Assembly: GCA_964463965.1 (NCBI GenBank)
Contig: CAYXED010000002.1
Span: 155,387-219,386, forward strand
DNA: 64,000 nt
From: an uncultured Nitrospiraceae bacterium
GTDB taxonomy: Bacteria > Nitrospirota > Nitrospiria > Nitrospirales > UBA2166
Direction: 5' to 3'
Positions 664-43,759 of this stretch are shown piece by piece; position 1 is the first letter of the stretch; every line of letters starts with the position of its first letter. The position numbers and the translations under genes are program-made. Below the pieces are notes generated by a model. The model saw only the letters and a list, made by a program, of their open reading frames with translations, was not told the DNA's origin and ran no database searches.

Positions 664-761
664 TGTGATTGTGTAGTCGAGGCCTTCCTTTATTCCTCAC
701 GATTCAAAGATGAAAATTTTTGATCTCATCTGGCAACATCCAGAACATATAAACACGGAAA

Positions 762-4756: not shown

Positions 4757-4768
4757 TCAGGTAATGCT

Positions 4769-6536: not shown

Positions 6537-6563
6537 ATTCCTATATCAAAGGGAACCGATAGA

Positions 6564-7550: not shown

Positions 7551-7560
7551 TAGAAGCTAA

Positions 7561-12446: not shown

Positions 12447-13565
12447 GTGGTTGCTTGCTACGAGAAACCTCTCTGCAGTCTGATGTTGAAAATGGATGAA
12501 AATTACCTTAAGGAAGTTAACTCTATTCAATTTTCCGGACGTGCTGTCGGTTCAGGTTTTCCATGTTTTATTATTGCTGAAGCGGGCGTAAATCATAATG
12601 GTAGTCTTGATATGGCAAGACAGCTAATTGATGCAGCGGCAGAAGCCGGTGCAGATGCAGTGAAGTTCCAGACCTTTAATGCGGAGAAACTTGTTGGTTC
12701 TGGAGTATCAAAAGCAGAATATCAATTGAAAACAACAGACCCAGATGAGTCACAGTTGACAATGTTGCGTCGCCTTGAATTTTCAATGGATTCGCACCGT
12801 GTTTTGCGTGACTATAGTGATGAAAAAGGCATTCTTTTCTTGTCAACGCCATTTGACCAAGAGTCTGTGGATCTTCTTGATCAGTTGGGTATACCTGTTT
12901 TCAAGATCAGCTCTGGGGATATTACTAATTGGCCTCTCTTAAAATATATTGCTAAGAAGGGGAAGCCTATTATTCTCTCTACTGGAATGTCTTATCTTGA
13001 AGAGGTCAGTGAAGCTATACGTTTAATTTTTGAAACAGGTAATGATCAAGTAAGTGTGTTGCACTGTGTTTCGAATTACCCTGCGAATCCTGAGGATATA
13101 AACTTACAAGCAATGGCAACGATGGCAAAGTCCTTTCGTCTTCCCGTGGGTTATTCAGACCATACTTTAGGCATTGAAATTTCGTTTGCTGCGGTAGCAT
13201 GTGGAGCGTGTATTATTGAAAAGCACTTCACGTTAGATAGGGCGCTGCCAGGGCCGGACCATGCTATCTCCATATTACCTCAGGAGCTTGCAGCGTTAAC
13301 CCGTGGGGTGAGGTTGATTTCAGGCGCATTAGGCAATGGCGAAAAAATTCCAGCAAAAAGCGAAAAAAAATCTCGTGAGGTTGCTAGAAGAAGCTTGGTG
13401 GCCTCTTGTGATATTGCACCTGGCACTGTCATTGAAGAGCCGATGATTCTGTGCATGCGACCTGGTACTGGGCTATCTCCAATATATTGTGATTGGGTTA
13501 TTGGGCGGAGAGCTAAGGTCAAGATTATGGCTAATCAGTTGATAGCAAGAGAAATGTTCGAATGA
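12447..13565 (+). CDS. neuB: N-acetylneuraminate/legionaminate synthase family (NeuB/LegI-like), canonical paralogue
   Basis: FIIAEAGVNHNGSLDMA, KFQTF, GYSDHTLG and EKHFTLDR are present, with a C-terminal SAF-like domain. The maximal ORF starts at GTG 12447. ATG 12483 or 12492 is the more likely true start. Confidence 0.9.
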   Translation: MVACYEKPLCSLMLKMDENYLKEVNSIQFSGRAVGSGFPCFIIAEAGVNHNGSLDMARQLIDAAAEAGADAVKFQTFNAEKLVGSGVSKAEYQLKTTDPDESQLTMLRRLEFSMDSHRVLRDYSDEKGILFLSTPFDQESVDLLDQLGIPVFKISSGDITNWPLLKYIAKKGKPIILSTGMSYLEEVSEAIRLIFETGNDQVSVLHCVSNYPANPEDINLQAMATMAKSFRLPVGYSDHTLGIEISFAAVACGACIIEKHFTLDRALPGPDHAISILPQELAALTRGVRLISGALGNGEKIPAKSEKKSREVARRSLVASCDIAPGTVIEEPMILCMRPGTGLSPIYCDWVIGRRAKVKIMANQLIAREMFE

Positions 13566-14473
13566 ATATTCTAATAGAGGCCGCAGGGAGTAAGGTTTGG
13601 GGAACTCTTTTGCCTTACTTGAGAACCGTTTCAAGTAAAATTGTTGGATTAGATATTGATGCGTTTTCGTGTGGACTCTATATGGTCAATCAAGGATATG
13701 TGGTTCCACGATATGATGAGGTGGGATGTTTCGAAAAAATACTTAAAATTTGCAGAAATGAAAAGATTGAATTGGTTCTTCCCTCAATTAATGAAGGGTT
13801 GCTGGAGTGGGCAAAGCAGCGCGTTTCTCTCCAAAGGGAGGGAATTAAGGTCTTAATATCTCCACCTGAATCTATTGCAATATGTCAGGATAAGTGGGAG
13901 ACGTATCAATTTTTTTCTGACAATAAAATTCCAACCCCGCCTACCTCGCTTAGGCATGAATATGATCTTGTGAAGCCTCGAATAGGGCGAGGGGGAACTG
14001 GGATTGAACGTATTAGCCCCACCAAAAAAATTAATATGGAAGGATATATCTCGCAGCAATTTATCAATGGTGAAGAGTTTTCGGTTGATGCCTTGTGCGA
14101 TTTTGATGGAAATGTTGTTTATGTTGTGCCACGAAAGCGACTTGCTGTTGAATCTGGGCTTTCTGTGAAAGGTCAAGTCGTAAATGATTCAGAGATTGAA
14201 ATGTATGTTCGGAAAATTTTAAGCTTAACCCCTTTTATTGGTCCCATTGATATTCAATGTTTTAAAGTTGACTCTGATATATTTTTTACTGAGATAAACC
14301 CTCGTATTGCAGGTGGATTGTCTCTTTCAATGGCCGCAACTGAAAACTGGTTTGAGGCAGTTGTGGAGATGGGGAAGGGAGTTTCTATTAATCCTGTTAA
14401 GGTCAATTATGGTTTACTCACAATGAGATACCTATCTGACTGCATAATCCATGAACGCGATTTACTTTTATGA
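13562..14473 (+). CDS. ATP-grasp family ligase
   Basis: 303 aa with KPRIGRGGTGI, EFSVDAL and TEINPRIAGG. The start makes an ATGA overlap with the upstream stop. Confidence 0.8.
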   Translation: MNILIEAAGSKVWGTLLPYLRTVSSKIVGLDIDAFSCGLYMVNQGYVVPRYDEVGCFEKILKICRNEKIELVLPSINEGLLEWAKQRVSLQREGIKVLISPPESIAICQDKWETYQFFSDNKIPTPPTSLRHEYDLVKPRIGRGGTGIERISPTKKINMEGYISQQFINGEEFSVDALCDFDGNVVYVVPRKRLAVESGLSVKGQVVNDSEIEMYVRKILSLTPFIGPIDIQCFKVDSDIFFTEINPRIAGGLSLSMAATENWFEAVVEMGKGVSINPVKVNYGLLTMRYLSDCIIHERDLLL

Positions 14474-15159
14474 TTCTTGCTGCAGGTTTTGACCTAGATG
14501 ATACGTTATATGAGCACCAGCAGTATATTGAAGGTGCCTATTGGGACATTGCTTTGGAAGTTGAGAGGAGAAAGGGTATTTCAGGTAAGAAGTTTTTTAA
14601 GCGTATTTTGTCTGATTGGACAAAGCTTACTAGTCAATCTAATACTATTTTTTCGAAAGCCTTGTCAGATTATAATATTTATTCTTTGGAACTTGAATCC
14701 GACTTACTGAATGTTTATCGTGCACATGAGCCGACACTGACACCTTACCCCGGCGTTGTTCAGGGGTTGCAAGAGTTAAAAAATAAAGGGGTTCGTCTTG
14801 GTTTACTTACGGATGGACAGCTTCAAGTCCAGCAACGTAAGCTGAATGTTTTAGGTTTGGAACAATTTTTTGATGTAAAAGTGTATACCGGAAGTTTCGG
14901 GGTTGATTTTTATAAACCCCATCCTCGGGGGTTTCAAAGTCTTGTAGCTGGCCTTAAAGTGCCTTTTGGAAAAATTGCGTATTTAGGAGACAATCCGTCA
15001 ACGGATTTCCAAGTGCCTAAGGAAATTGGTATGCAAACAATACGTTTACAGACGGGGCAGTATAAAAATCTTAAGTTGAACGCGCATTCTGTTGATCAAG
15101 TATTCTCGAGTATCTCTCAAGCAATCCATTGGTTGATTGAAAATAAAGGAACAGCTTGA
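14470..15159 (+). CDS. HAD-superfamily hydrolase/phosphatase
   Basis: 229 aa with FDLDDTLY (DxDxT), LLTDG and GDNPSTD. Confidence 0.85.
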   Translation: MILAAGFDLDDTLYEHQQYIEGAYWDIALEVERRKGISGKKFFKRILSDWTKLTSQSNTIFSKALSDYNIYSLELESDLLNVYRAHEPTLTPYPGVVQGLQELKNKGVRLGLLTDGQLQVQQRKLNVLGLEQFFDVKVYTGSFGVDFYKPHPRGFQSLVAGLKVPFGKIAYLGDNPSTDFQVPKEIGMQTIRLQTGQYKNLKLNAHSVDQVFSSISQAIHWLIENKGTA

Positions 15160-15160
15160 T

Positions 15161-16330
15161 ATGAGGAAGCGTAAGTTAGTTGTTGCTTTGACGGGTATTC
15201 GCTCAGAGTATGATATTTTTTTCTCGCCTTTAAAAGCCATTCATGAGCATCCTGATTTGGAGCTTCGCCTTATAGTTGCAGGCGCACACTTGGCTTCACG
15301 TTATGGAATGACGGTAAGGCAAATTGAAGAAGATGGGTTTTCTATTGCAGAGCGAATTGAAAGTTTGCTTGATTCTGATACTTCAAGTGGACGAATAAAA
15401 TCTGCAACTGTTGAATTAATGGGTGTAGTCAGTGCACTAGACCGGTTAAATCCTGATTATCTTTTAGTATGTGGTGACAGAGAAGAAGCAATAGTAGGCG
15501 CTTTGGCAGGAGCATACATGAATATTGCTGTTGCACACATTGGTGGTGGGGATGTGGTAGTTGGAAATGTAGATGATTCTGTTCGTCATGCTGTTACGAA
15601 GCTATCGCACTTGCACTTTGCATTCAGCAAAAACAGTGCGGACAGAATTTGCTCTATGGGAGAAGAATCTTGGCGTGTGCATCTTGTGGGTAATCCTGCT
15701 TTAGACCGCTTTGGTGTACTCCCTAAGTTGTCGCGAAAAGAGTTGAGTGATCGCTTGCATTTTGATGTTACAAAGGCTCCGGTTTTATTGGTTATACAGC
15801 ATAATATTAGCAGTGAAATTGAGAGTTCTGGCGTTCAAATGCAAACTACGATAGAAGCTATTAAAGAACTAGGGTATCCGACCTTGCTAAGCTATCCAAA
15901 TTCTGATGCTGGAAGTCGTGATATTATTAAGGTTATTGATGAACGTGCAAGGCATTTGCCTAATGTCAAGGTCTACCAAAGTCTTCCAAGGCTTGAGTTT
16001 GTTAATCTTTTACAAATAGCAGATGTATTGATAGGGAATTCAAGTTTGGGGCTTCTTGAAGCGCCATTTTTAAAGCTTCCCGCAGTGAACGTAGGCAATA
16101 GGCAGAAAAAGCGGGAACATGCCGATAATGTTTTATTTGTCTCTCACGATAAAGAAGCCATAAAAGAGTCTGTCAATATGGCATTGCATGATTCAAAGTT
16201 TCTTCAGCGGCTTAATGCGTGCTCGTGTCCATTTGGTGATGGGAAGGCTGGTCAGAAGATTGCAAGCGTGCTTGCAAAAACTGAGCTTGCTCCCGTACTC
16301 GTGAATAAAGATTGGGCATTTAAAGTATAA
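15161..16330 (+). CDS. neuC: UDP/GDP-N-acetylglucosamine-type 2-epimerase (hydrolysing), NeuC/LegG-like
   Basis: TGIRSEYDI, CGDREE, HIGGGD and IGNSS give the family pattern. ATG 15161 is preceded by aaagga. The track ORF starts at TTG 15137, inside the upstream gene. Confidence 0.85.
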   Translation: MRKRKLVVALTGIRSEYDIFFSPLKAIHEHPDLELRLIVAGAHLASRYGMTVRQIEEDGFSIAERIESLLDSDTSSGRIKSATVELMGVVSALDRLNPDYLLVCGDREEAIVGALAGAYMNIAVAHIGGGDVVVGNVDDSVRHAVTKLSHLHFAFSKNSADRICSMGEESWRVHLVGNPALDRFGVLPKLSRKELSDRLHFDVTKAPVLLVIQHNISSEIESSGVQMQTTIEAIKELGYPTLLSYPNSDAGSRDIIKVIDERARHLPNVKVYQSLPRLEFVNLLQIADVLIGNSSLGLLEAPFLKLPAVNVGNRQKKREHADNVLFVSHDKEAIKESVNMALHDSKFLQRLNACSCPFGDGKAGQKIASVLAKTELAPVLVNKDWAFKV

Positions 16331-16458
16331 TTTTTCACTGATTTAACCTTATAACCTCAACCATGTACTGTCTTTATGATATGAGTGGGAAAAGTCAATT
16401 TCCCCTTGTAATATTGAATACGACTTCAGTGCATTTGATTGACTAGTAAGGGTTTAAG

Positions 16459-17484
16459 ATGCGACAAAAAAAGAACTCATTATTGACATCAAGCTCTGTA
16501 TATATTATCGCAGAAATGGCTTGTTCCCACGAAGGCGATGTTGTTTTAGGCCAATCAATAATTGATGCCGCCGGGTCTGCTGAGGCGAATGCAATTCAAT
16601 TTCAGGTTTGGTCTCTTTCGGATATGGTCGTTCCTCATCATCCAGCGTATGAAATGCTTTCAAGTATTGAGTTGTCTCGTGATTCTTGGACTAACCTTTT
16701 TCACTATGCCAGAAAAAAATTTCCTGAGATGGAAATTATCGCATGCGTTTATGAGCGTGGGAGTGTTGATTTCTGTGAGTCTCTTGGGATTGATGCATAT
16801 AAAATTCACTCTGCTGATCTTTCAAACCCTTACCTTATAAAACATATTGCACGTACAGGTAAGCCTATTGATCTAAGTGTTGGGGCGTCGACTCTTAATG
16901 AAATTCAGACTGCAGTTGAATGGATTGGCAGCAGCTCTGAATCACCAATTTGGCTTATGTATGGATATCAAGATTTCCCTACGAAAACCGATGATGTCCA
17001 TTTGAGATATATGATGAATCTCAAGCGGCTTTTTGGATTGCCTGTTGGCTATCAGGATCATAGTGATGCCGAGACTGAGGCTTCATTTTGGCTTCCAGCT
17101 GTCGCGGTGGGTATGGGTATTGATGTCCTAGAAAAACACATTACACATGATAGATCATTGAAGGGAGTAGATCATGAGGCAGCCCTAAACCCTCAAGAAT
17201 TTTCCAGTTTTGTAGGTATGGTGCGTGAAATTGAATGTGCGCTTGGAGTCTCAACTCCGAAGGAATTTTCTAAAAATGAGATTGAATATCGTCGATCATC
17301 AAAGAAGAGCCTCGTCGCAGCTCGGGCATTAGATACGGGCACGATACTCACCGAGAAAGATTTTATTTTTATGAGGGCTGAGACTTTAGGGGTTCCTCCT
17401 GATAAAGCTCATTGGTTGATTGGGAAAAAGTTAAAAAATCCAATTGCTGCATTTCATCTCATTCTTTATGAAGATCTTGAATGA
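16459..17484 (+). CDS. NeuB-family ulosonic acid synthase, divergent second paralogue
   Basis: 341 aa. GYQDHS, LEKHITHDR and a C-terminal SAF-like domain are conserved. The N-terminal active-site strand reads IIAEMACSHEGD where the canonical paralogue has IIAEAGVNHNG. Confidence 0.8.
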   Translation: MRQKKNSLLTSSSVYIIAEMACSHEGDVVLGQSIIDAAGSAEANAIQFQVWSLSDMVVPHHPAYEMLSSIELSRDSWTNLFHYARKKFPEMEIIACVYERGSVDFCESLGIDAYKIHSADLSNPYLIKHIARTGKPIDLSVGASTLNEIQTAVEWIGSSSESPIWLMYGYQDFPTKTDDVHLRYMMNLKRLFGLPVGYQDHSDAETEASFWLPAVAVGMGIDVLEKHITHDRSLKGVDHEAALNPQEFSSFVGMVREIECALGVSTPKEFSKNEIEYRRSSKKSLVAARALDTGTILTEKDFIFMRAETLGVPPDKAHWLIGKKLKNPIAAFHLILYEDLE

Positions 17485-19247
17485 AAACCTGTTTCCTTAT
17501 TACTGCACGACTGAAATCAACTCGCCTACCAAAGAAGTTGTTGCTAGAAGTTTGTGGAAAACCATTGCTTGCCCATATGATAGACAGAATTAAAGAAGCA
17601 AGGCTTATTGACGAAATTGTTGTTTGCACTTCGACCAACAGCGAAGACGATCCCTTATGTGATTTAGCCTCTGTAGAAAATGTGTCTTATTTTAGGGGAG
17701 ATGAAGAAGATGTAGTTAAAAGACTATATGATGCTTCTTTAAAGTTTGAGGCAGATTATATTTTAAATATTACAGGCGATTGTCCTTTTGTTGATCCTGT
17801 TTATATTGATCGCATTGTAGAAGTTAATCAAACGATCAAGGCAGACTTAGTTCGTGCGTTGGAATTGCCTCATGGAGCGTATGCCTATGGTGTCTACCCA
17901 TCAGCTATAAAGACAATCCTTGATATTAAAAGTTCAAAAGACTCTGAAGTGTGGACCCCATATTTTACAGATACTAACTTATTTTCTGTCTATGATCTTC
18001 CAATTGATAATCCCCATCACCGTAGATCTCATCTTCGCATGACATTAGACTACCCTGAAGATTTGAAGTTTTTTGAGGCCGTATTTTCTCACTTATACAA
18101 TGTTGAGAGAGTTTTTAGTTTGGATGAAATTTTAGAACTTTTGAAAAATAATCCAGAGATAGTTGCTCTTAATGACCACTGTTCATTGCCATATAAAAAA
18201 CGATGGACTAGGCAATCTGTAATTGGTTTGAAGCCTAGGTGTGAAGTGAATTCTGCAGTCATTGTTGGGTGTGGTTCGATAGGAAAGAGGCATATCAAAA
18301 ATTTGTCTTCGCTGGGCATTACTGAAATTACAGCATTGAGAACTTTTCATGGTTATACCAAGGCACTCCCAGAAGAATATAATGTGATCGAAGTAGGAGA
18401 TATTGACTCTCTCAAAAAGGTATCTCCTGATATAGCCATTATTAGTAATCCAACAAGTCTCCACATTGAAACTGCAAGAACATTGCTTCAATATGTTAAG
18501 GGAGTGTTTATTGAAAAGCCTTTAGCCGCATCACTCGATGGAGTATCTGAATTTATTGATGAGGTTTATGATAGAGGCATTGTATCGTTTGTAGGATATA
18601 ACCTTGAATTTCACCCTGCAATATGCACGATTCGTGACTTGATTACATCCGGAAGTTTTGGAACTCCCATGATATTTCAATGTCAGGTCGGACAATGGTT
18701 ACCTGATTGGCATCCATACGAAGAGTATAAAGATGCGTACTATGCCCGTAAATCATTGGGTGGTGGTGCAATGTTGACTCTCAATCATGAACTTCATTTA
18801 GCAGAGTCACTTATTGGACCTTCTCAGTCTGTTGGATGCTTTCTTCCCCACACAGATCTTTTGGAAGTCGATGTTGAAACTGTTGCTGATTTGATGATCA
18901 AGCATGTTTCAGGCGCAGTTAGCCAGGTTCATTTGGATTTTATCCAGAAGCCATCTCATCGAGTTGGCGTGCTTTCATGTGAGCGTGGACGGGTGAACTA
19001 TGATTTAAGCGCAAATCAGGTGTTTGCAAGCTCTGGAGACTCTAAAGCTCCCAGGTTGGTTTGGGAAGATCCTTTGTACGATATTAATGATTCATATGTT
19101 GGAGAGATGAAAAAGTTTTTAGAGTATGTGAGAGAAGGAAGAATGCGTCATGAGTTTGATGTATGTAGGGCAAAACGTGATATGGAAGTTGTCGAAGCCG
19201 CTTTTGAATCTCACAAGTTAGGACGCTTTGTTCAATTGACTAGTTGA
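17481..19247 (+). CDS. Fusion protein: SpsF/NeuA-family cytidylyltransferase (N-terminal) plus Gfo/Idh/MocA oxidoreductase (C-terminal)
   Basis: 588 aa. Residues 1-245 carry ITARLKSTRLPKKLL and GDCPFVD. Residues 255-588 carry VIVGCGSIGKRH and FIEKPL. The start makes an ATGA overlap with the upstream gene. Confidence 0.8.
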   Translation: MKTCFLITARLKSTRLPKKLLLEVCGKPLLAHMIDRIKEARLIDEIVVCTSTNSEDDPLCDLASVENVSYFRGDEEDVVKRLYDASLKFEADYILNITGDCPFVDPVYIDRIVEVNQTIKADLVRALELPHGAYAYGVYPSAIKTILDIKSSKDSEVWTPYFTDTNLFSVYDLPIDNPHHRRSHLRMTLDYPEDLKFFEAVFSHLYNVERVFSLDEILELLKNNPEIVALNDHCSLPYKKRWTRQSVIGLKPRCEVNSAVIVGCGSIGKRHIKNLSSLGITEITALRTFHGYTKALPEEYNVIEVGDIDSLKKVSPDIAIISNPTSLHIETARTLLQYVKGVFIEKPLAASLDGVSEFIDEVYDRGIVSFVGYNLEFHPAICTIRDLITSGSFGTPMIFQCQVGQWLPDWHPYEEYKDAYYARKSLGGGAMLTLNHELHLAESLIGPSQSVGCFLPHTDLLEVDVETVADLMIKHVSGAVSQVHLDFIQKPSHRVGVLSCERGRVNYDLSANQVFASSGDSKAPRLVWEDPLYDINDSYVGEMKKFLEYVREGRMRHEFDVCRAKRDMEVVEAAFESHKLGRFVQLTS

Positions 19248-19277
19248 GTTGATAATCTGAATTAAAATGTGAAGAGT

Positions 19278-20111
19278 ATGAGTAAAACTGCATTTGATCT
19301 TACAGAAAAAACTGCTTTGGTAGTCGGGGGTAATGGGTTTCTCGGATGTCGTTTGTGTAACGAATTAATTCAGCACGGTGCCACAGTATATGCGGCAGAT
19401 TTGCGCGAATCATCTTTGGCGGCTTCTCGAGATGACTCCCTTGTCCTTGAAAAGAAGGTTTTGCAACGCACAGTTGATGTTGCTGATTCGACGTCGGTGG
19501 TCAATCTTGTTGATGGGATTATCGAAGAGGCAAAGAAGATTGATATTCTTGTTTACAGTGTTACCGCAAAGCCGCACGATTTTTATAAACCGTTTACAGA
19601 GTGTTCACTTGAAGGTTGGCAATCTCTTATGCGTATGGAGTTGGATGGGCTTTTTCTCATTTCAAAGCATGTCGGGAAGTATATGGAGGCTGCAGGTGAA
19701 GGTAGTATGGTTTTTCTTTCCTCCATCTATGGGATAGTTGGTAATGATCAGAGAATATATGAAGAGGCAAATCTTGCAACATTGTATGCTGGTATAGATA
19801 AGGATGAGGCAAAAAAAATCTACTCGCATGCGGGATATGCCGTTGCCAAAGGAGGAGTTATCGCTCTAACGCGCTTTCTTGCAGCGTACTGGGGAAAGGC
19901 TGGAATTAGAGTGAACTGTGTTTCTCCAGGAGGCATTTCGCATCCAGGGGAAGATGATGGCTTTGTTCAGCGTTATTCGTTTCGAGTGCCGATGGGCCGT
20001 AAGGGGTTGCCTTCAGAGGTTGGAGGTGCAGTTGTGTACTTATCATCGAATGCCGCTAGTTACGTGACAGGTCACAACCTTGTAGTAGATGGTGGGTGGA
20101 CATCCTGGTAA
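19278..20111 (+). CDS. Short-chain dehydrogenase/reductase
   Basis: VVGGNGFLGCRL and catalytic YAVAKGG. GTG 19269 is a possible alternative start. Confidence 0.85.
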   Translation: MSKTAFDLTEKTALVVGGNGFLGCRLCNELIQHGATVYAADLRESSLAASRDDSLVLEKKVLQRTVDVADSTSVVNLVDGIIEEAKKIDILVYSVTAKPHDFYKPFTECSLEGWQSLMRMELDGLFLISKHVGKYMEAAGEGSMVFLSSIYGIVGNDQRIYEEANLATLYAGIDKDEAKKIYSHAGYAVAKGGVIALTRFLAAYWGKAGIRVNCVSPGGISHPGEDDGFVQRYSFRVPMGRKGLPSEVGGAVVYLSSNAASYVTGHNLVVDGGWTSW

Positions 20112-20174
20112 TTATTATTGTTGGTTTTTGAATTTGTGGTTGCTAGGTACTTTTTTCTCTAGCACGTTGTTTTC

Positions 20175-20846
20175 TTGCATGTACTTTTGGAGAACTTTTT
20201 GAAGAATATAACTGCTGACTGTGTGATTTTAGGAGGTGGTGGGCATGCAGCTGTTATTCTCGATGCTATTCATGCTAGCGTCGGAAGTCTTTCGTGTGTT
20301 GTGCTAGATAAAAATCGCGATCATTGGGGAACAAAATTTTTAAATGTTGAAATCCTTGGAGACGATACCTTATTGCCAGAGTTGCTTGAGGCGGGTGTTT
20401 TGAGTTTTATTGTTGGAGTTGGAGGAGTAGGGGACAATCAGTTGCGGAAAGATTTATTTGAGCAAGGAGTTAGGCATGGATTGAAACCTATGATGGTGCA
20501 GCATCCAGCAGCAGTTCGATCTGAATGGGCCACAATTGATGCTGGGACTGTTCTTCTTGCAACATCAGTTGTTGGGCCAAGGGCAATCATTGGAGAAAAT
20601 GTGATTGTCAATACTGGAGCGATTGTTGAACATGATTGTCAAGTTGGTGATCATGCGCACATATCTATTGGTGCTCAGCTGGCAAGTGCGGTGCATGTTG
20701 GGTCAATGGCTCATGTCGGAGTTGGTGCTTCTGTAAGGCAAAGTGTTTCAATTGGAGAGGGAGCTATTGTTGGAGCTGGAGCAGTGGTTGTAAAAGATGT
20801 TGCTGATTGGAGCACTGTTTGTGGTGTTCCAGCTGATGTTATCTAG
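20175..20846 (+). CDS. PglD/NeuD/LegH-family sugar N-acetyltransferase (left-handed beta-helix)
   Basis: N-terminal ILGGGGHAAVILDAI domain followed by hexapeptide repeats (IGENVIVNTGAIVEHDCQVGDHAHISIGAQL...). The TTG start is uncertain. Confidence 0.8.
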   Translation: MHVLLENFLKNITADCVILGGGGHAAVILDAIHASVGSLSCVVLDKNRDHWGTKFLNVEILGDDTLLPELLEAGVLSFIVGVGGVGDNQLRKDLFEQGVRHGLKPMMVQHPAAVRSEWATIDAGTVLLATSVVGPRAIIGENVIVNTGAIVEHDCQVGDHAHISIGAQLASAVHVGSMAHVGVGASVRQSVSIGEGAIVGAGAVVVKDVADWSTVCGVPADVI

Positions 20847-20961
20847 TAAGGTATTATGAGGAAATATTATTATGGTAAGGCGTTATATTTATGCTTCCTT
20901 TCAGGGTGTTATGTAGGATATATGTTGCAGGATCAGTCTATTCCCAACAGAGGAGGCTCTA

Positions 20962-21663
20962 ATGCCTGGAAGTGAAGTGGATCTGGCAAAACGCTGGAAC
21001 CAAGTGTACAGCGAAAAACATATGACAAACTGGTATCCTAGCTATGATATCTTACGTTTTTGTTCAAAATTTATTCAAAAGCGTCTCACCTATGATACCT
21101 ATGATGTGAAAAAAAATGTAAAAAGTGTTCTTGATCTTGGTTCGGGAAATGGGCGGCATGTAATTTTTTTTGCAAATCAAGGATTTGAAGTTTCAGGCAT
21201 TGATATTTCTGATGATGCTATCAAGCTTTCAAAAGAGTGGTGTGCAAGAGAAGGCTTAGATGCTGATTGTCGCGTTGGAGATATCACTCACCTTCCTTAT
21301 AAAGATGCTTCGTTTGATCTTGTTGTTTCACATGGGGTTTTGGACCATGTTCATATGAGTGATGCTTGCTCTGCGGTAAACGAGGTAAACAGGGTGTTGA
21401 CTCCTTCAGGACTATTCTACTGTGATCTCAGAGGCACAGAGGACTTTGAGTTTGAGATTGGCGAAAAAATTTCATTCAATACATTTATGATCCCAGAAGG
21501 TTTTGAAAAGGGGCTGATTCAGCATTTTTTTTCATTGAAGGAAGTGCATGAGTTATTTGATGAGCATTTCAAGATAATCTATATTGAAAAAAGTGAACAT
21601 GTGTATGGCCCTGATTTTACAAAAAGAAATTCTCGGTGGATAGTTGGGGCTCAGAAACTGTGA
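20962..21663 (+). CDS. Class I SAM-dependent methyltransferase
   Basis: 233 aa with VLDLGSGNGRH motif I and DLVVSHGVLDH. gaggagg RBS upstream. Confidence 0.85.
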   Translation: MPGSEVDLAKRWNQVYSEKHMTNWYPSYDILRFCSKFIQKRLTYDTYDVKKNVKSVLDLGSGNGRHVIFFANQGFEVSGIDISDDAIKLSKEWCAREGLDADCRVGDITHLPYKDASFDLVVSHGVLDHVHMSDACSAVNEVNRVLTPSGLFYCDLRGTEDFEFEIGEKISFNTFMIPEGFEKGLIQHFFSLKEVHELFDEHFKIIYIEKSEHVYGPDFTKRNSRWIVGAQKL

Positions 21664-21801
21664 TCTCCGTAGCTAAACAACAGTAGAAATAGACCAATTC
21701 AATAATTTTTCAAGTGGCTTTACCATGATTTCTATATTTAGCCGCTCTGCACGCCTTAATTAGCTGTATTTTTTAAGTGATTATTTAAAGAGGAAATTAG
21801 T

Positions 21802-22950
21802 ATGGCAAGATACGTTGCAATGATCCCAGCTCGTTTGGGAAGTAAGCGTGTTAAAAAGAAAAACTTGAGGCTTTTGGGTGAGAAGCCATTAATTGCGTAT
21901 GCAATTGAAGTTGCCTGTGCATCAAGGGCTTTTGATGAAGTATATGTGAATTCTGAATCAGAAGTTTTTAAGGAAATAGCAGAGCGATATGGCGCAAAGT
22001 TTTATCAGCGCCCAGTAGAATTTTCAACTGATCACGCAACAAACGATGGTTTTGCTCAGGAATTCATGGATAATGTAATGTGCGATGTTTTAGTTCAAAT
22101 TAACCCTACGTCTCCTTTTATTGGAGTGGAGGATATTCAAAAGGCAAAGGCGTTATTTGAACAAGATGGCTACGATACTGTTTTGTCAGTCAAAGAACTT
22201 CGTATTGAAGGGTTACTAAAAAATACGCCATTGAACTTTAATCCCAAACAACAGATGCCTCCTTCGCAAGACCTTGAACCGCTATATGTATTTTGTAATG
22301 GTATCTTAGCGTGGAGAACGGAAATATTTCTCAAAAATATGAAGGAATATGGTTGTGCGGTCTATGGGGGAGAAGGGAAAACGGGGTACTGTGTTTTAAG
22401 TGGTGATGCAACGCTGGATATTGATGAAGGTAGCGATTTTTCTCAAGCAGAACTTGTTTTAGAGAGGCGAAGGCAGCGAGTGCTGCCTGCCCGCTATTGG
22501 GATTGTGGTGACTCTCCTGGAGAGCACTCTGAGACAACTGTTGGAGATATCCTAAAAAAAGATGGAGTTGTAAAAATTGATTTAGAGGATGTAAATCACG
22601 AGATCACGAACATTCCAAAGTTGTTGTCTGATGGGAGTAATGCTAGGTCGTGGAGTAAGCGAATTATCAATTCGAAGAGCAATTGCGTAACTTTAATTAG
22701 TCAAATGCCTGGAGATGGGAACAGATTGCACTACCATTATGATTGGGATGAATGGTGGTTTATTCTTGAAGGAGAATGGGAATACGAAGTAGAAGAAAAA
22801 ATACATCGTGTTAGTCAAGGTGATGTAGTGTTTATTGAGCGCAACCGATTGCATAAAGTAACAGCTAAAGGAGCATCGAGAGCCGTTCGCATGGCGGTCA
22901 GTTTTGATGGCGTGGCTCACGTGTATCCTGCTGAAGAAGAGACTGTATAG
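21802..22950 (+). CDS. Fusion protein: acylneuraminate cytidylyltransferase (NeuA/LegF-like) plus C-terminal cupin domain
   Basis: 382 aa with N-terminal AMIPARLGSKRVKKKNL. The C-terminal ~100 aa carry cupin motifs HYHYDWDEWWFILEGEWEY and FIERNRLHKV. Confidence 0.8.
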   Translation: MARYVAMIPARLGSKRVKKKNLRLLGEKPLIAYAIEVACASRAFDEVYVNSESEVFKEIAERYGAKFYQRPVEFSTDHATNDGFAQEFMDNVMCDVLVQINPTSPFIGVEDIQKAKALFEQDGYDTVLSVKELRIEGLLKNTPLNFNPKQQMPPSQDLEPLYVFCNGILAWRTEIFLKNMKEYGCAVYGGEGKTGYCVLSGDATLDIDEGSDFSQAELVLERRRQRVLPARYWDCGDSPGEHSETTVGDILKKDGVVKIDLEDVNHEITNIPKLLSDGSNARSWSKRIINSKSNCVTLISQMPGDGNRLHYHYDWDEWWFILEGEWEYEVEEKIHRVSQGDVVFIERNRLHKVTAKGASRAVRMAVSFDGVAHVYPAEEETV

Positions 22951-22983: not shown

Positions 22984-24213
22984 GTGAGCATAGTTATGCA
23001 TAGAACCAGCATGTTTAACCTCAAATTGGATATCTCTAAGAGCCATGGATCTTTTTTATTTGATATCAATCAACAAGAAGAACTACTTGACCTTTTTGGT
23101 CTTTATTCCTCTTTGCCACTAGGTTACAACCATCTTATTTTTAAAAACCAAGAGTTTCGTGAAGCTATTCTTCTGTCTGCCAATGTCAAAGTTCCAAATT
23201 GTGAACTGGATACGCCAGAGGCGGAAAAATTTTTACACGAATTTACTACACATCCTTCCATGCGGGACTTTTCATTTTTTCATTTTTCATGCACTGGGGC
23301 ATTAGCTATTGAAGCCTCTATTAAGACTGCTATTGATTATAAGAGGGCTTCAGATCCACAAATAATTACCTTTAAGGGAAGTTTCCATGGGATCAATAGT
23401 TATGGAGGGTTTTTAACTGATCGCTCTGGAAGTTCGAGTCGACGATTAGAAGGTATGCCGGGTGGTCTTTTTGGAGAACCACTGCCTAATCCTGTAATGT
23501 CGTGTCGTGATGGACAACTATTTGTTGATGACTCTTTAACGGATAGAACTTTGGAGGAAGTTGAATTCCGTTTTCGAAGAGATGAGCAGTCGATATGTGC
23601 TGTTCTTCTTGAACCTATTCAATGTACTGCAGGCGATCTTCTTTTTGATCTTCGGTTTCTTAAAGGAATACGCGATTTATGCAGTCAGTTTAATGTTCCT
23701 CTGATTTTTGATGAGGTTCAAACTGGATTTGGGGGCACTGGGACCATGTGGTACTTTGAACAATGTGGTATCGTCCCTGATATTGTTGTTTTTGGAAAAA
23801 AGTCACAGGTATCAGGGATTATGGTAAGGGAACAATTTGGAGAAATATTTAAAAATGCTCTTCGGCTGGAAGTCACATGGGATGGTGATCTTCTTGATAT
23901 GATTAGGTGTCGTTGGATTCTTCAGGCGTTTCAGAAATTTAATATTTTAGAGAATGTGATATCTCGTGGTAAGCAGTTAGGGACTGCTCTTCGAGAGATA
24001 GCATCTGTTGAAAATGTCCGTCAGGTTGGACTCCTTATCGCTTTTGATTTCAAGGATACTGGAGTTCGTGATGAGTACGTACGTTCAATGAGACATCATA
24101 AAACCATAGTTTTGCCGACGCAAGAAAAGTCAATTAGATGGAGGCCTAACCTTGCGATGACTGATGCGGAGGCAAAACTCGCGATTTCTCGTTCAGCAAA
24201 ATGTTATTCTTGA
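22984..24213 (+). CDS. Class III PLP-dependent aminotransferase (lysine 6-aminotransferase-like subgroup)
   Basis: 409 aa with LLEPIQCTAGD, FDEVQTGFGGTG and a PLP-lysine context FGKKSQVSG. The start is GTG 22984 or ATG 22996. Confidence 0.8.
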   Translation: MSIVMHRTSMFNLKLDISKSHGSFLFDINQQEELLDLFGLYSSLPLGYNHLIFKNQEFREAILLSANVKVPNCELDTPEAEKFLHEFTTHPSMRDFSFFHFSCTGALAIEASIKTAIDYKRASDPQIITFKGSFHGINSYGGFLTDRSGSSSRRLEGMPGGLFGEPLPNPVMSCRDGQLFVDDSLTDRTLEEVEFRFRRDEQSICAVLLEPIQCTAGDLLFDLRFLKGIRDLCSQFNVPLIFDEVQTGFGGTGTMWYFEQCGIVPDIVVFGKKSQVSGIMVREQFGEIFKNALRLEVTWDGDLLDMIRCRWILQAFQKFNILENVISRGKQLGTALREIASVENVRQVGLLIAFDFKDTGVRDEYVRSMRHHKTIVLPTQEKSIRWRPNLAMTDAEAKLAISRSAKCYS

Positions 24214-24235
24214 CGCTTCATGCTTGGAGAGAGTG

Positions 24236-25321
24236 ATGCTTCCTAAAGGAATTCAGAGCATTTCTGAGCTTTGTGTGCCTCCTACCTTCTCCGTTCGAGA
24301 GGTGATGGAGCAGATGAATGTGACACGTGTCGGCATCGCTTTGGTTGTTGTTGAGGATGATGTACTTGTAGGTACCGTCACCGATGGTGATTTACGGAGA
24401 GCTATGCTTGCATCTGTAGATTTTGATGGATCTGTCCAGCAGTTATTGGATAGAAAATCACTTGCAGGAACCTCAGATCCCGTTGTTGCACAGGTTGGAA
24501 TTTCTCATGCCGGTTTGCTCGCGATGTTGCAGGAGTCATGTGTTAGTCACTTACCTATTGTCGATGTGAAAATACGTGTGGTTGGGCTTGCTACTCGAAG
24601 TGAGTTTTTGCCTGACCCTACTGTAAAAACACAGGCAGTGATTATGGCAGGTGGATTTGGAACACGTCTTCAGCCACTCTGTGATGAAATTCCAAAACCC
24701 ATGCTTCCTGTTGGTGAGCGCCCCTTGATGGAGCTGATCATTGAACGTTTACGAGACTCTGGAATTAAGCAAGTCAATGTAAGTACCCATTATAAGAGGG
24801 AAAAAATTATGTCTCACTTCGGAAATGGAGGAGACTTTGGTGTTGAAATATCATATGTCGAGGAAGACAGCCCACTTGGAACTGCTGGGGCAATTGGTCT
24901 TATGAAGACTCCCGAGGAAACGTTGCTTGTGATGAACGGTGATATTCTCACTCACGTTGATTTTCGTGCGATGTCATTTTTTCATCAAGAGCACAAAGCT
25001 GACTTTACAGTTGCAGTTCGTGCGTATGATGTTGAAGTCCCCTATGGCGTTATTGAATGTGAAGATATTTGGGCATTTGCATTGACTGAAAAACCCAAAC
25101 AAACACATTTTATTAATGCGGGAATTTATTTGTTGGAGCCTGTGGTTCATCAATATATCCCCAAAGGGCGTCATTTTGACATGACCGATCTAATTCAATG
25201 TTTAATTACGAACAAAAAGCGTGTAGCAACTTTCCCTATTCAAGAGTACTGGGTTGATATTGGACAGCACGCTGATTATGCGAGGGCTAAAGAATATATT
25301 GAGGGAAAGGGTACTTTGTAG
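24236..25321 (+). CDS. ptmE: CBS-domain sugar-1-phosphate nucleotidyltransferase (PtmE-like, probable GDP-sugar forming)
   Basis: N-terminal CBS pair (VGTVTDGDLRRAM, HLPIVD) and C-terminal AVIMAGGFGTRLQPL. ATG 24236 is preceded by ggagag. The track's 5' extension overlaps the upstream gene. Confidence 0.7.
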   Translation: MLPKGIQSISELCVPPTFSVREVMEQMNVTRVGIALVVVEDDVLVGTVTDGDLRRAMLASVDFDGSVQQLLDRKSLAGTSDPVVAQVGISHAGLLAMLQESCVSHLPIVDVKIRVVGLATRSEFLPDPTVKTQAVIMAGGFGTRLQPLCDEIPKPMLPVGERPLMELIIERLRDSGIKQVNVSTHYKREKIMSHFGNGGDFGVEISYVEEDSPLGTAGAIGLMKTPEETLLVMNGDILTHVDFRAMSFFHQEHKADFTVAVRAYDVEVPYGVIECEDIWAFALTEKPKQTHFINAGIYLLEPVVHQYIPKGRHFDMTDLIQCLITNKKRVATFPIQEYWVDIGQHADYARAKEYIEGKGTL

Positions 25322-43137: not shown

Positions 43138-43146
43138 GGAGGAAGC

Positions 43147-43743: not shown

Positions 43744-43759
43744 TTGGAGGTATGGGAAA

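Follow-up and report, generated by a model that had tools for sequence, protein, structure and literature searches.

The window, a 64,000-nt stretch of DNA, contains two NeuB-family synthase genes, one NeuC gene and three CTP_transf_3 cytidylyltransferases (CTs), and it raises the question of whether such a locus makes more than one activated ulosonic acid. This gene tally, claimed by the initial annotation, is correct, as are its coordinates: five ORFs were confirmed on the + strand (12447-13565, 16459-17484, 17481-19247, 21802-22950 and 36273-37052), and the E-values of their Pfam domain matches are far beyond chance. The claim of a single NeuC-like epimerase also holds, because 15137-16330 was the only Epimerase_2/NeuC gene among all window ORFs of at least 150 aa. 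What we observed directly is family membership, the active-site signature, the coupling and fusion of genes, and synteny. We put at about even the chance that a Nitrospirota-related bacterium carries at 8-27.5 kb a legionaminic-acid (Leg)-type nonulosonic-acid (NulO) locus with two synthase branches, that NeuB2 is active with a rebuilt donor pocket, and that a third module is separate.

The proposed canonical Leg branch

The genes of the 8-27.5 kb region are as follows.

8224..8892, + strand: PIG-L family de-N-acetylase (Pfam PIG-L, 79.7 bits)
10113..12284, + strand: B12-binding radical-SAM enzyme of the KedN5-like C-methyltransferase type, immediately 5′ of NeuB1 (Pfam B12-binding and Radical_SAM)
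12447..13565, + strand: NeuB1, assigned as canonical PEP-dependent nonulosonate synthase of LegI/SpsE Leg type (TIGR03569, active-site residues, tree)
13562..14473, + strand: ATP-grasp ligase (Pfam ATP-grasp_3, PylC-like_N)
14470..15159, + strand: HAD-family hydrolase, phosphatase-like (Pfam Hydrolase, HAD_2)
15137..16330, + strand: NeuC/LegG-type hydrolysing NDP-sugar 2-epimerase (TIGR03568, 385 bits vs. cut-off 236)
16459..17484, + strand: NeuB2, of a sister clade of nonulosonate synthases, donor site rebuilt (Pfam NeuB and SAF, tree, signature)
17481..19247, + strand: fusion of a KdsB/SpsF-like CT (residues ~1-245) and a Gfo/Idh/MocA oxidoreductase (~255-588) (Pfam)
19269..20111, + strand: short-chain dehydrogenase (SDR), putative ElaC-like ketoreductase partner of the fusion (Pfam adh_short)
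20175..20846, + strand: NeuD/PglD-type N-acetyltransferase, predicted LegH role (TIGR03570, 191 bits vs. cut-off 161)
20962..21663, + strand: SAM-dependent methyltransferase (Pfam Methyltransf_11, _25, _31)
21802..22950, + strand: NeuA/LegF-type CMP-nonulosonate synthetase fused to a metal-binding cupin (CTP_transf_3 85 bits, Cupin_2 45 bits)
22984..24213, + strand: class-III aminotransferase (Pfam Aminotran_3, 182 bits)
24164..25321, + strand: CBS plus sugar-1-phosphate nucleotidyltransferase, PtmE-like, predicted for the NDP-hexosamine precursor (Pfam CBS and NTP_transferase)
25347..26351, + strand: LegB-type NDP-GlcNAc 4,6-dehydratase (TIGR04180, 443 bits, just under cut-off 475)
26352..27539, + strand: LegC-type aminotransferase (TIGR04181, 487 bits vs. 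cut-off 420)

The strand described earlier as canonical is present in the translation of NeuB1, which holds FIIAEAGVNHNG. NeuB1 matches Pfam NeuB with 326 bits (E 1.6e-97) together with SAF, clears TIGR03569 (447 bits vs. a cut-off of 400), has the complete set of canonical active-site residues in the alignment and groups with Leg-type partner synthases in the NJ tree; among solved structures, its closest relative is SpsE of B. subtilis (1VLI, 220 bits). Because homology sets in near residue 25, the true start is probably some 12-15 codons 3′ of the GTG at 12447. A Neu5Ac synthase was considered and rejected, since the LegB, LegC, PtmE-like, NeuD-like and NeuC neighbours point to the LegI type. 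By homology and neighbourhood, NeuB1 is the canonical Leg synthase within a complete Leg pathway. In this branch, the PtmE-like (also found in 34 NeuB2 loci), LegB, LegC and NeuD-like enzymes would produce an NDP-2,4-diamino-2,4,6-trideoxyhexose, NeuC would free and 2-epimerise it, NeuB1 would join the released sugar to PEP, and the NeuA-cupin enzyme would activate the product with CMP. The reported NeuA-cupin fusion is borne out by both Pfam domains; it scores 104 bits on the PseF model, under the cut-off, and its PDB matches are CMP-Neu5Ac synthetases and PseF (6IFD).

The product of this branch may be tailored by the PIG-L deacetylase, the ATP-grasp ligase, the methyltransferases and the B12-radical-SAM enzyme. 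The PIG-L enzyme, which has a published analogue in Kuenenia and homologues within the NeuB2/Leg loci L004, L014, L027, L029 and L033, probably exposes an amino group of the Leg-type sugar so that it can be re-acylated, and the ATP-grasp ligase (weak homologues in L004 and L059) may attach an acyl or amino-acyl group to the sugar amine. Homologues of the methyltransferase at 20962..21663 occur in L014 and L033 (54-55% identity). The B12-radical-SAM enzyme (NCBIfam NF033712, 211 bits), the HAD hydrolase (TIGR02253, 107 bits) and the class-III aminotransferase (all of its best NCBIfam matches) score under the respective cut-offs.

The NeuB2 clade and its cytidylyltransferase

NeuB2 is a family member according to Pfam (NeuB, 178 bits, E 2.4e-52, plus SAF), and the motifs listed for it previously, YIIAEMACSHEGD, GYQDHS and EKHITHDR, are all found in the translation. 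It scores 223 bits on TIGR03569 and falls under both the NeuB and the PseI equivalog cut-offs, and its best PDB sequence match reaches 124 bits; the best folds for its AlphaFold model, which is of moderate confidence (pLDDT 75.7), are PseI, NeuB and SpsE. The two paralogues do not share one specificity clade, a matter that had been left to phylogeny: the NJ tree and the model scores place NeuB1 and NeuB2 in different clades. The NeuB2 clade is monophyletic in that tree, with 27-34% identity to NeuB, SpsE, PseI and NeuB1, and its members come from over 60 genomes spread across many phyla. Its 884 homologues show approximately 65% identity across Chloroflexota, Acidobacteriota, Omnitrophota, Planctomycetota, Desulfobacterota and CPR, the mean column identity of the clade is 73%, and in a same-genome comparison NeuB2 was more conserved than the canonical partner synthase. 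A drifted copy was rejected because of this monophyly and distribution, and because the clade retains the residues that bind the metal, act as catalytic acids and contact the sugar. Judged by its sequence, NeuB2 is a variant from a conserved, so far uncharacterised sister clade of NeuB-family synthases.

The stop of NeuB2 overlaps the start of the 17481 fusion (ATGA), in agreement with NeuB2 having its own co-translated CT. A CT of the same KdsB/SpsF-like type lies directly 3′ of NeuB2 in 51 of 57 genomes, with a gap of at most 5 nt in 44 of those 51. The best 150 cluster representatives include 35 single NeuB2-like-SAF-CTP_transf_3 polypeptides, one fusion of a canonical NeuB, a NeuB2-like domain and a CT, and two NeuB2-like, CT and GT2 fusions; protein P0418 carries an extra N-terminal domain of ~320 aa, followed by a NeuB2-like domain and a CT. 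In our context survey, which covered 10-kb flanks on MAG contigs, a canonical synthase stands alongside NeuB2 in 37 of 42 loci and a second CT in 11 of 42. Most loci thus have two synthases and one CT; therefore, either the CT would serve both products or NeuB2 would work in series with the canonical synthase. In ~10% of loci (L010, L031, L053, L062), no canonical synthase lies within 10 kb of NeuB2, and in L053 and L010 it occurs without Leg genes nearby. The NeuB2 product would pass straight to the co-translated CT. NeuB2 has a rebuilt substrate pocket and is always tied to an activating enzyme of its own, so that several different acidic sugars are probably made and activated in the cell.

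The donor site of NeuB2

Signature residues, with roles taken from PMC11339185, were counted in 55 NeuB2-clade members and 39 co-located canonical synthases. At the donor (PEP) site, NeuB2 departs from the characterised enzymes at positions where these do not vary (K53Q, S213Q, S/T110C, Y186F, N184Q). Across the clade, position 53 is Q in 54/55 members (K in 39/39 canonical synthases), position 213 is Q in 54/55 (S in 39/39), position 186 is F in 53/55 (Y in 39/39), position 110 is C in 53/55 (S/T in 39/39) and position 184 is Q in 55/55. A new His131 (G131H) is present in 50/55 members, with Asn in 4; S132 and S154 are relaxed, S132 being Ala in 9/55; and the beta2-alpha2 loop with the C6-OH ligand N74 is deleted in NeuB2. 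H215, E234, H236 and D247 are each kept in 55/55, and NeuB2 itself retains the Mn ligands H215 and H236, E25, E234, D134 and K129, together with Q55, D247 and R314, which contact the sugar and its N-acetyl group. Most members of the wider clade have Ala, Met, His or Leu at position 213, and the metal and sugar ligands are fixed.

The initial annotation had emphasised a divergent N-terminal strand and suggested a non-standard aldose. The divergence is real, but the strand (IAEMACSHEG) is one mark only, and the diagnostic changes affect the PEP-contacting K53, S213, N184 and T110, plus Y186; therefore, an altered donor site is at least as strongly indicated as a non-standard aldose, the divergence being on the donor and not the aldose side. 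We consider that NeuB2 may be an active metal-dependent aldol-type synthase yielding a 2-keto-3-deoxy acid. K53 and S213, two ligands of the donor site that every known synthase is said to share, are missing, and S132 and S154 are less strictly kept; PEP use by NeuB2 is therefore not assured.

There is a small but appreciable chance that NeuB2 dispenses with PEP and is a pyruvate aldolase that has the NeuB fold and depends on a metal. It would carry out a reversible pyruvate-based synthesis of the nonulosonate, or invert C4 of the NeuB1 product by cleaving and re-forming it (a retro-aldol 4-epimerase), with the co-translated CT pulling the equilibrium forward. The altered residues K53Q, S213Q and N184Q are exactly the PEP phosphate and carboxylate ligands, and the Ala variants at S132, the new His131 and the variable position 213 beside constant metal and sugar ligands agree with this proposal. 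Tight CT coupling or fusion is what an unfavourable equilibrium would require; the canonical synthase beside NeuB2 in 37/42 loci, mostly with one CT, and the triple fusion order (canonical NeuB, NeuB2-like, CT) point the same way. However, the NeuB, KDO8PS and DAHPS superfamily offers no precedent, Gln and His could still bind phosphate, K129 is retained and S132 and S154 mostly so, position 131 is Asn in four members, and the canonical partner is missing from ~10% of loci within 10 kb.

We also regard as unlikely that NeuB2 is an isozyme that uses PEP and builds the same backbone, making Leg from a 2,4-diamino-trideoxyhexose that carries other N-acyl groups or is not acetylated, so that one kind of CMP-Leg derivative and no chemically new ulosonate would result. 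The common precursor pathway with its single NeuC and usually single CT per locus, the conserved N-acetyl sugar holders R314, Q55 and D247, and the deacylase, ligase and methyltransferase genes of the window, taken as signs that N-acyl variants are made, favour this possibility. Nevertheless, it is the donor side that has changed, not the positions where N-acyl groups would bind, the clade is old, monophyletic and conserved beyond its partners, and NeuB2 also occurs without nearby Leg genes (L053, L010).

The NulO cluster of Leptospira interrogans may offer a parallel to the NeuB1/NeuB2 locus: it has a LegI-type and a second "distantly related" synthase and two CTs; Leptospira expresses di-N-acetyl NulO and Neu5Ac, and a neuraminic- or Kdn-type role was proposed for that second synthase (PMC3438082). 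It is improbable that NeuB2 likewise makes Neu5Ac, Neu5Ac-9-P or Kdn from ManNAc, mannose or their 6-phosphates: the HAD phosphatase-like gene adjoining NeuC and the domain arrangement of P0418 would suit such a synthase, but the window has no ManNAc or mannose kinase, the 223 bits of NeuB2 compare with a NeuB model cut-off of 400, and the N74 loop is deleted. A catalytically dead paralogue, acting only as scaffold or regulatory partner of the CT or NeuB1, is highly improbable. Residues held essential for PEP binding are lost, and the domain-swapped dimers that NeuB enzymes form make hetero-oligomers conceivable. However, the metal ligands, E25, E234, D134, K129, D247 and R314 vary little or not at all between phyla, and the replacement residues are just as fixed, which is what an active site that works, but differently, would show.

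Probable chemistry after activation and the third module

Returning to NeuB2 as an active synthase with a rebuilt donor pocket, its CT was described previously as an SpsF-like fusion. The KdsB/SpsF-like CT is indeed fused (CTP_transf_3, 82 bits; GFO_IDH_MocA, 54 and 46 bits), but this description left aside that ElaA/ElaC is a published analogue of the Gfo/Idh/MocA domain and the SDR. The ElaB-ElaA-ElaC triad has been proposed to 8-epimerise CMP-Leg, with ElaA and ElaC acting at C8. The likeness consists in the CT, Gfo, SDR gene order and in shared PDB relatives: the fusion matches 6OEW with its CT and 3EZY, the nearest structure reported for ElaA, and others with its oxidoreductase, and the best solved relative of the SDR is 6UH2 (113 bits, full length), the search model with which the ElaC structure was solved. 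In contrast to ElaB, which is PseF-like, the CT here is KdsB/SpsF-like. The fusion is also found 3′ of NeuB2 in nine other genomes, and the SDR after it is conserved (53-67% identity). Because of the published analogue, part of the extra chemistry probably takes place after activation and not at the synthase; following the Ela scheme, the fused oxidoreductase domain would oxidise a CMP-sugar hydroxyl and the adjacent SDR would re-reduce it, resulting in epimerisation. We infer all catalytic steps of the proposed scheme, the substrates and product of NeuB2 and the epimerised position.

The third CT lies in a module of its own.

34601..36135, + strand: two SDR oxidoreductases opening the module (Pfam adh_short)
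36273..37052, + strand: KdsB-type CT (TIGR00466, 163 bits vs. cut-off 155; NF003952, 233 vs. 193)
37049..39123, + strand: Gfo/Idh/MocA oxidoreductase, overlapping the CT stop, then a methyltransferase-like protein (Pfam)
39128..41521, + strand: HpcH/HpaI class-II pyruvate aldolase, HAD phosphatase, D-2-hydroxyacid dehydrogenase (Pfam)
41518..44443, + strand: conserved 539-aa protein, SIS sugar-phosphate isomerase, FSA/transaldolase-like aldolase (SIS_2, TAL_FSA)

The "KdsB-like" label of this CT (Pfam CTP_transf_3, 134 bits) stands, since the KdsB thresholds are passed, but the gene belongs to a separate HpcH aldolase module that is unrelated to either NeuB. This module probably makes yet another CMP-activated keto-deoxy acid, which its HpcH aldolase, HAD, SIS, KdsB-type CT, Gfo and SDR genes would produce by the logic of the Kdo pathway.

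Because of the separate NeuB clades, the NeuB2-CT coupling, the Ela-like fusion and the third CT module, we consider the prediction that the locus makes more than one CMP-ulosonate to be well supported. The initial annotation was therefore right in part: the separate clades and the own CT of NeuB2 are upheld, and more than one CMP-activated 2-keto-3-deoxy acid remains the most economical reading, whereas the type of NeuB1, the emphasis on the aldose and the context of the third CT required revision.

The 539-aa protein at 41518 gave no Pfam match at E<=1, and the HpcH/HpaI aldolase scores 214 bits on TIGR02311, under the cut-off. The module is syntenic as a block on L072-L074 (46-74% identity): the SDRs (63-65%) and the CT (61-62%) in L072 and L073, the Gfo/Idh/MocA (63-69%) and methyltransferase-like (47-51%) proteins and the HpcH/HpaI aldolase (72-74%) in L072-L074, and the genes of 41518..44443 again in L072 and L073.

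The glycan locus and its predicted legionaminic-acid-type branch

Positions 1-60223 of the window are an unusually large single-strand glycan locus. Every gene from 4 to 60223 lies on the + strand, giving 54 consecutive genes with a uniform positive GC skew, and the UvrA at the window end shares 67-68% identity with Nitrospirota proteins. By this similarity, the host would probably be a diderm related to Nitrospirota. The initial annotation reported two NeuB-family genes, three CTP_transf_3 cytidylyltransferases (CTs) and one NeuC-like epimerase. These ORFs are present, their Pfam domains agree, the quoted motifs occur in the translations, and a second Epimerase_2 gene is absent among all window ORFs of at least 150 aa. 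The observation is therefore confirmed.

Nonulosonate and cytidylyltransferase genes of the window
12447-13565, +, NeuB1 (Pfam NeuB, 326 bits, and SAF)
15137-16330, +, NeuC (Pfam Epimerase_2)
16459-17484, +, NeuB2 (Pfam NeuB, 178 bits, and SAF, 21.8 bits)
17481-19247, +, CT-Gfo fusion (Pfam CTP_transf_3 and GFO_IDH_MocA)
19269-20111, +, SDR (Pfam SDR)
20175-20846, +, acetyltransferase (Pfam PglD_N/hexapeptide)
20962-21663, +, methyltransferase (Pfam)
21802-22950, +, NeuA-cupin (Pfam CTP_transf_3 and Cupin_2)
36273-37052, +, KdsB-type CT (Pfam CTP_transf_3, 134 bits)

NeuB1 has the attributes of a LegI-type synthase. It scores 447 bits on TIGR03569 (cut-off 399.65), every canonical active-site residue is present, and its neighbours are of the LegB, LegC, LegG, LegH and PtmE types. 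Its closest solved relative is SpsE of B. subtilis (1VLI, 220 bits), and it resembles LegI of C. jejuni, SpsE 1VLI and NeuB of N. meningitidis (1XUZ) in fold, motifs, active-site residues and pathway neighbours. NeuC and the acetyltransferase exceed the cut-offs of TIGR03568 and TIGR03570, respectively, the product of 26352-27539 passes the LegC model (487 bits vs. 420), that of 25347-26351 is near but below the cut-off of the LegB model (443 bits vs. 475), and 24164-25321 encodes a CBS plus nucleotidyltransferase protein of the PtmE type. The locus is thus predicted from its gene content to encode a legionaminic-acid-type (Leg) pathway.

Interspersed among the Leg genes are others with apparent tailoring roles, which encode a PIG-L deacetylase, an ATP-grasp ligase, a HAD hydrolase, methyltransferases, a B12 radical-SAM enzyme and a class-III aminotransferase. 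For a similar cluster of Kuenenia, a recent preprint described free-amine, formylated and methylated CMP-nonulosonates. The B12-binding radical-SAM gene (10113-12284; KedN5-like C-methyltransferase type, below cut-off) lies directly 5′ of NeuB1, and another such enzyme is found at 6426-7988 of the metagenome contig L073, within an HpcH aldolase module. These enzymes could C-methylate ulosonic acids, an idea that recalls the C10 CMP-ulosonates reported without explanation in Magnetospirillum. The NeuA/LegF-type CMP-synthetase at 21802-22950 carries a C-terminal metal-binding cupin with an HxH...E...H motif, and this domain could be an epimerase, an isomerase or a dioxygenase acting on the CMP-sugar.

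The NeuB2 clade and its donor site

NeuB2 belongs to the NeuB family according to its TIM barrel and C-terminal SAF/antifreeze-like domain, both of which were recovered by Pfam; a fold search likewise gave the NeuB fold. The best folds matched by its AlphaFold model (pLDDT 75.7) were PseI (8H2C), NeuB (1XUU) and SpsE (1VLI), followed by DAHP and Kdo8P synthases. Its sequence is distant from characterised synthases: identity is 34% to NeuB1 and 27-30% to NeuB, SpsE, PseI and the Leptospira protein 6NCS, the best PDB sequence match is 124 bits, and the equivalog cut-offs of TIGR03569 (223 bits vs. 399.65) and of the PseI model TIGR03586 (166 vs. 340.25) are not reached. A database search with NeuB2 returned 884 homologues, and the best 120, at 61-67% identity and from many phyla, are annotated merely as "N-acetylneuraminate synthase family protein." A pattern scan with one genome per species yielded 67 NeuB2 loci. 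Neighbour-joining grouped the NeuB2 sequences in a single clade, outside the group that contains N. meningitidis NeuB, SpsE, Leptospira 6NCS, NeuB1 and the co-located canonical synthases. The phylogenetic check proposed in the initial annotation consequently places the two paralogues in different clades. One of the loci, L046 from a Desulfobacteraceae MAG, holds four NeuB-family genes within 21 kb: a Leg-type gene, NeuB2 with its CT, a PseI-like gene and a divergent one whose branch adjoins the NeuB2 clade.

For a comparison of active sites, N. meningitidis NeuB served as the alignment reference for 55 clade members and 39 canonical synthases from the same loci, and its numbering is used here.

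Active-site positions in the NeuB2 clade (n = 55) and in canonical synthases (n = 39)
E25: NeuB2 clade 54/55; canonical 39/39
K53: NeuB2 clade Q 54/55; canonical K 39/39
Q55: NeuB2 clade 54/55; canonical 39/39
S/T110: NeuB2 clade C 53/55; canonical S/T 39/39
K129: NeuB2 clade 54/55; canonical 39/39
Position 131: NeuB2 clade H 50/55; canonical P/A/G/S
S132: NeuB2 clade S 40, A 9, T 4; canonical S 39/39
E/D134: NeuB2 clade D 54/55; canonical E 27, D 9, H 3
N/S184: NeuB2 clade Q 55/55; canonical S 28, T 10, V 1
Y186: NeuB2 clade F 53/55; canonical Y 39/39
S213: NeuB2 clade Q 54/55; canonical S 39/39
H215: NeuB2 clade 55/55; canonical 39/39
E234: NeuB2 clade 55/55; canonical 39/39
H236: NeuB2 clade 55/55; canonical 38/39
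D247: NeuB2 clade 55/55; canonical 38/39
R314: NeuB2 clade 49/55; canonical 39/39

According to the published residue roles, the PEP phosphate is held by S132, S154 and S213, which are "fully conserved" in the bacterial and mammalian enzymes, and is likewise touched by N184; the PEP carboxylate is bound by K53 and K129, position 110 is always Ser or Thr, and ManNAc is held by Q55, Y186, D247 and R314 (PMC11339185). The NeuB2 clade retains the metal ligands (H215, H236) and the catalytic acids (E25, E/D134, E234), and it departs from the PEP-site residues at several positions (K53Q, S213Q, T110C and a relaxed S132), though K129 is kept. Compared with LegI, SpsE and NeuB, NeuB2 shares the NeuB TIM barrel and SAF domain, the metal ligands, the catalytic acids and R314, whereas it carries K53Q, S213Q, N184Q, T110C, Y186F and G131H and is without the N74 loop. 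The alignment points to a coordinated re-modelling of the NeuB2 pocket that is concentrated on the donor side. The strand IAEMACSHEG, in which the initial annotation located the divergence of NeuB2, is indeed present; however, when the signature is read together with the published residue roles, this strand is merely the most visible part of the re-modelling.

The same pattern extends well beyond the window. When 1.84 billion cluster representatives (50% identity) were searched with a profile, approximately 140 of the best 150 belonged to the NeuB2-like clade. Among the best 150, Gln184 is nearly universal, Ala, Gln, Met, His or Leu occupies position 213 in most, and the metal and sugar ligands are fixed; therefore, the atypical donor site is a trait of a large sister clade rather than of the window's protein alone. 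The idea that NeuB2 is a degenerate duplicate was ruled out because the clade is kept across phyla and its substituted residues are invariant. In a large phylogenetic survey, conservation of the catalytic residues is reported "with few exceptions" and a NeuB2-type clade goes unmentioned; the clade with its donor-site signature appears to be undescribed in the literature searched.

Coupling of NeuB2 to its cytidylyltransferase

In the window, 128 nt separate NeuC from NeuB2, and the NeuB2 stop overlaps the start of the next gene (ATGA). Among the 57 loci with at least 1.5 kb downstream, the same CT type lies immediately 3′ of NeuB2 in 51, with a gap of at most 5 nt in 44 of these; the CT-Gfo fusion was found in nine of the surveyed loci and the SDR in 14. 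Furthermore, 35 of the best 150 representatives are single polypeptides of 574-615 aa that join a NeuB2-like domain, SAF and CTP_transf_3, and their CT domains score 139-288 bits against an HMM of the CTs that follow NeuB2 in genomes. These natural fusions are strong comparative evidence that a NeuB2-type enzyme supplies the acid activated by this CT, which it would either make or hand over. Both the obligate coupling and the frequent fusion of NeuB2 to a KdsB/SpsF-like CT appear to be undescribed in the literature searched. What the comparison defines is a large, phylum-spanning clade of putative synthases that has a clean sequence signature, an obligate CT partner and natural fusions, which would be handy for expression work.

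Some representative proteins are more elaborate. P0370 (963 aa), the one protein of its kind, consists of a canonical NeuB, a NeuB2-like domain and a CT; P0448 and P0482 (1032-1045 aa) continue from NeuB2-like and CT domains into GT2 and a further C-terminal region; and P0418 (899 aa) begins with an N-terminal domain of approximately 320 aa without assignment, followed by NeuB2-like and CT domains. Upstream of NeuB2, no gene is conserved across the loci except an SGNH-like gene in 10 of them. This SGNH/GDSL-like family (approximately 225 aa) occurs in 11 loci (L003, L007, L009, L011, L029, L033, L034, L039, L040, L048 and L066), directly 5′ of NeuB2 in all but L007, where it lies elsewhere in the locus, and in P0397 the SGNH/GDSL-like domain is fused to a NeuB2-like domain. 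Some NeuA enzymes carry an O-acetyl-esterase domain, which this partner of NeuB2 recalls.

In most genomes, NeuB2 is an "extra" gene of a Leg-type pathway. Downstream sequence of at least 6 kb is available for 42 loci; a canonical synthase occurs in 37 of them and NeuC in 33, and a second CT of the NeuA or KdsB type is present in only 11. In Thiovibrio, the NeuB2-coupled CT is the only CT near a complete Leg operon, and in one complete genome, NeuB2 and a canonical synthase head a Leg operon with no CT nearby. With both synthases and mostly one CT present, either a single CT handles two products or NeuB2 and the canonical enzyme work one after the other. A second, NeuA-type CT, which is fused to a cupin, sets the window apart and makes two complete branches possible in it. 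In about 10% of loci, NeuB2 and its CT occur without Leg genes within 10 kb. Loci with NeuB2 and no canonical partner (L053, L010, L031 and L062) were considered as a clue to the substrate; L053 contains a CDP-3,6-dideoxyhexose-like set and transposases, which were uninformative.

A precedent for the genes downstream of NeuB2 was published in 2026. In the A. baumannii KL49 locus, ElaB, ElaA and ElaC are proposed on the basis of genetics, crystal structures and docking to form CMP-8-epi-Leg5,7Ac2: the CTP transferase ElaB produces CMP-Leg5,7Ac2, the Gfo/Idh/MocA enzyme ElaA is proposed to oxidize C8, and the SDR ElaC is proposed to reduce the ketone from the opposite face, which constitutes a Gfo/SDR epimerisation scheme (PMC13656337). 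The window similarly has a CT, a Gfo/Idh/MocA domain and an SDR in that order within a Leg locus (17481-19247 and 19269-20111), and the set was also found in 9-10 other genomes. The best solved relative of the window SDR is 6UH2 (113 bits, full length), the model that phased ElaC, and the Gfo domain matches 3EZY, the structure reported as nearest to ElaA. However, four differences are apparent. The CT and Gfo of the window form one polypeptide; the CT is KdsB/SpsF-like, whereas ElaB is PseF-like; the atypical NeuB2 comes before the triad; and a separate NeuA-cupin CT is present. The fused CT domain has 6OEW as its best PDB match and KdsB subfamilies, below cut-off, as its best NCBIfam models, and it gave no match to the PseF-type model used for ElaB; this comparison with ElaABC was made through solved structures. 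The fusion of CT to Gfo argues that the substrate of the oxidoreductase would be the CMP-sugar.

We propose that NeuB2 would be an active metal-dependent synthase of the aldol type, that its keto-deoxy acid product would be CMP-activated by the co-translated CT, and that Gfo and then the SDR would epimerise the CMP-sugar. The cell would then have two CMP-nonulosonates, this one and the tailored CMP-Leg from the NeuB1/NeuA-cupin branch, and module 3, the block at 34601-44443, would probably contribute a third CMP-acid. Our confidence in this scheme as a whole is about evenly divided. A new specificity of NeuB2, if true, would provide genes for orphan sugars and enzymes for the chemo-enzymatic synthesis of rare CMP-sugars.

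Alternatively, the NeuB2-like clade may have the NeuB fold but work without PEP, as a metal-dependent pyruvate aldolase that builds nonulosonic acids (NulOs), or that re-forms them with an inverted C4 as a retro-aldol C4 epimerase, pulled by CMP activation. The loss of phosphate ligands, the appearance of His131, the obligate CT coupling and the pattern of two synthases with one CT are all in its favour, but such a reaction is without precedent, and we consider it unlikely. If true, it would alter the textbook view of one mechanism for all NeuB-fold synthases and would add a new CMP-ulosonate route, a candidate source of unexplained isomers such as 4-epi-legionaminic acid. Slightly less likely again is the view that NeuB2 is a PEP-dependent isozyme that takes the same sugar with a different N-acyl group.

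It is more improbable still that NeuB2 is a Neu5Ac, Neu5Ac-9-P or Kdn synthase, as in the proposal made for a distant second synthase of Leptospira (PMC3438082). The NulO cluster of L. interrogans has a LegI-type synthase, a second, distantly related synthase and two CMP-synthetases; more than one NulO was inferred and partly shown, and phosphorylated substrates were proposed for the second synthase, which is fused to an endonuclease-like domain (PMC3438082). Likened by description, the Leptospira cluster and the window each combine a LegI-type synthase, a distant second synthase and duplicated CTs in one locus, whereas the endonuclease-like fusion is a feature of the Leptospira enzyme and not of NeuB2. 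The idea that duplicated synthases and CTs signal several nonulosonates is thus already known from Leptospira (PMC3438082) and is not new. That NeuB2 is a dead scaffold is highly improbable, and its clade keeps the metal ligands and catalytic acids.

NulOs, including sialic, legionaminic and pseudaminic acids and their epimers, occur on flagella, S-layers, capsules and LPS, where they shape phage and immune recognition. Mass-spectrometry surveys have found that environmental bacteria hold CMP-ulosonates outside every known pathway. The NeuB2 clade could account for such orphan CMP-ulosonates.

Module 3 and the remainder of the locus

The third CT, encoded at 36273-37052, exceeds the KdsB cut-offs (TIGR00466, 163.3 bits vs. 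155.2; NF003952, 233.5 vs. 193), and its stop overlaps a Gfo oxidoreductase gene. It lies within a block of approximately 10 kb.

Module 3
34601-44443, +, two SDRs, KdsB-type CT, Gfo, methyltransferase-like protein, HpcH/HpaI aldolase, HAD hydrolase, 2-hydroxyacid dehydrogenase, 539-aa protein, SIS isomerase and FSA/TAL-like aldolase

Three unrelated metagenome contigs (L072, L073 and L074), none with a NeuB gene, carry the block as well, at 46-74% identity. This synteny with the HpcH module weakens the idea that the third CT is a plain housekeeping KdsB, and no kdsA was found within the window. The conserved HpcH/HAD/SIS/Gfo block around 36273 argues for a dedicated substrate, with Kdo still possible. 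Similar to the Kdo pathway (KdsD, KdsA, KdsC and KdsB), module 3 combines an SIS isomerase and an aldol-forming enzyme with a HAD phosphatase and a CT that passes the KdsB models. However, its condensing enzyme is a class-II pyruvate aldolase of the HpcH/HpaI type and not the PEP-dependent KdsA, and it adds a Gfo, two SDRs, a methyltransferase-like protein, a 2-hydroxyacid dehydrogenase, an FSA-like aldolase and the conserved 539-aa protein. Judged by domain content only, module 3 would follow the logic of Kdo synthesis, with a class-II pyruvate aldolase taking the place of KdsA. It would represent a second case of a Kdo-like pathway with a different aldolase, open to testing, and the HpcH-based module appears to be undescribed in the literature searched.

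The glycan locus further holds a CDP-hexose branch (44364-47539), an AsnB-like amidotransferase, a sulfotransferase (54084-54971) and a PglF/PglE/PglC-like set (55015-60223). The upstream block at 4-8124 encodes a PhyH-like dioxygenase, an ABC exporter, a domainless 650-aa protein, an SDR, an AroB-related sugar-phosphate cyclase (TIGR04425, 460 bits vs. cut-off 400), a Gfo oxidoreductase and a GmhA-like isomerase, and together these genes point to a cyclitol or heptose-derived unit in this glycan. Five large ORFs (2804-4756, 27565-29652, 31831-33639, 41518-43137 and 49681-50949) encode proteins of 422-695 aa that have no Pfam match at E ≤ 1, except for a weak GNAT match in one, and they may be new glycosyltransferases or polymerases that use CMP-sugars. 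Two of the five have homologues in syntenic loci, unk539 in L073 and unk602 in L074.
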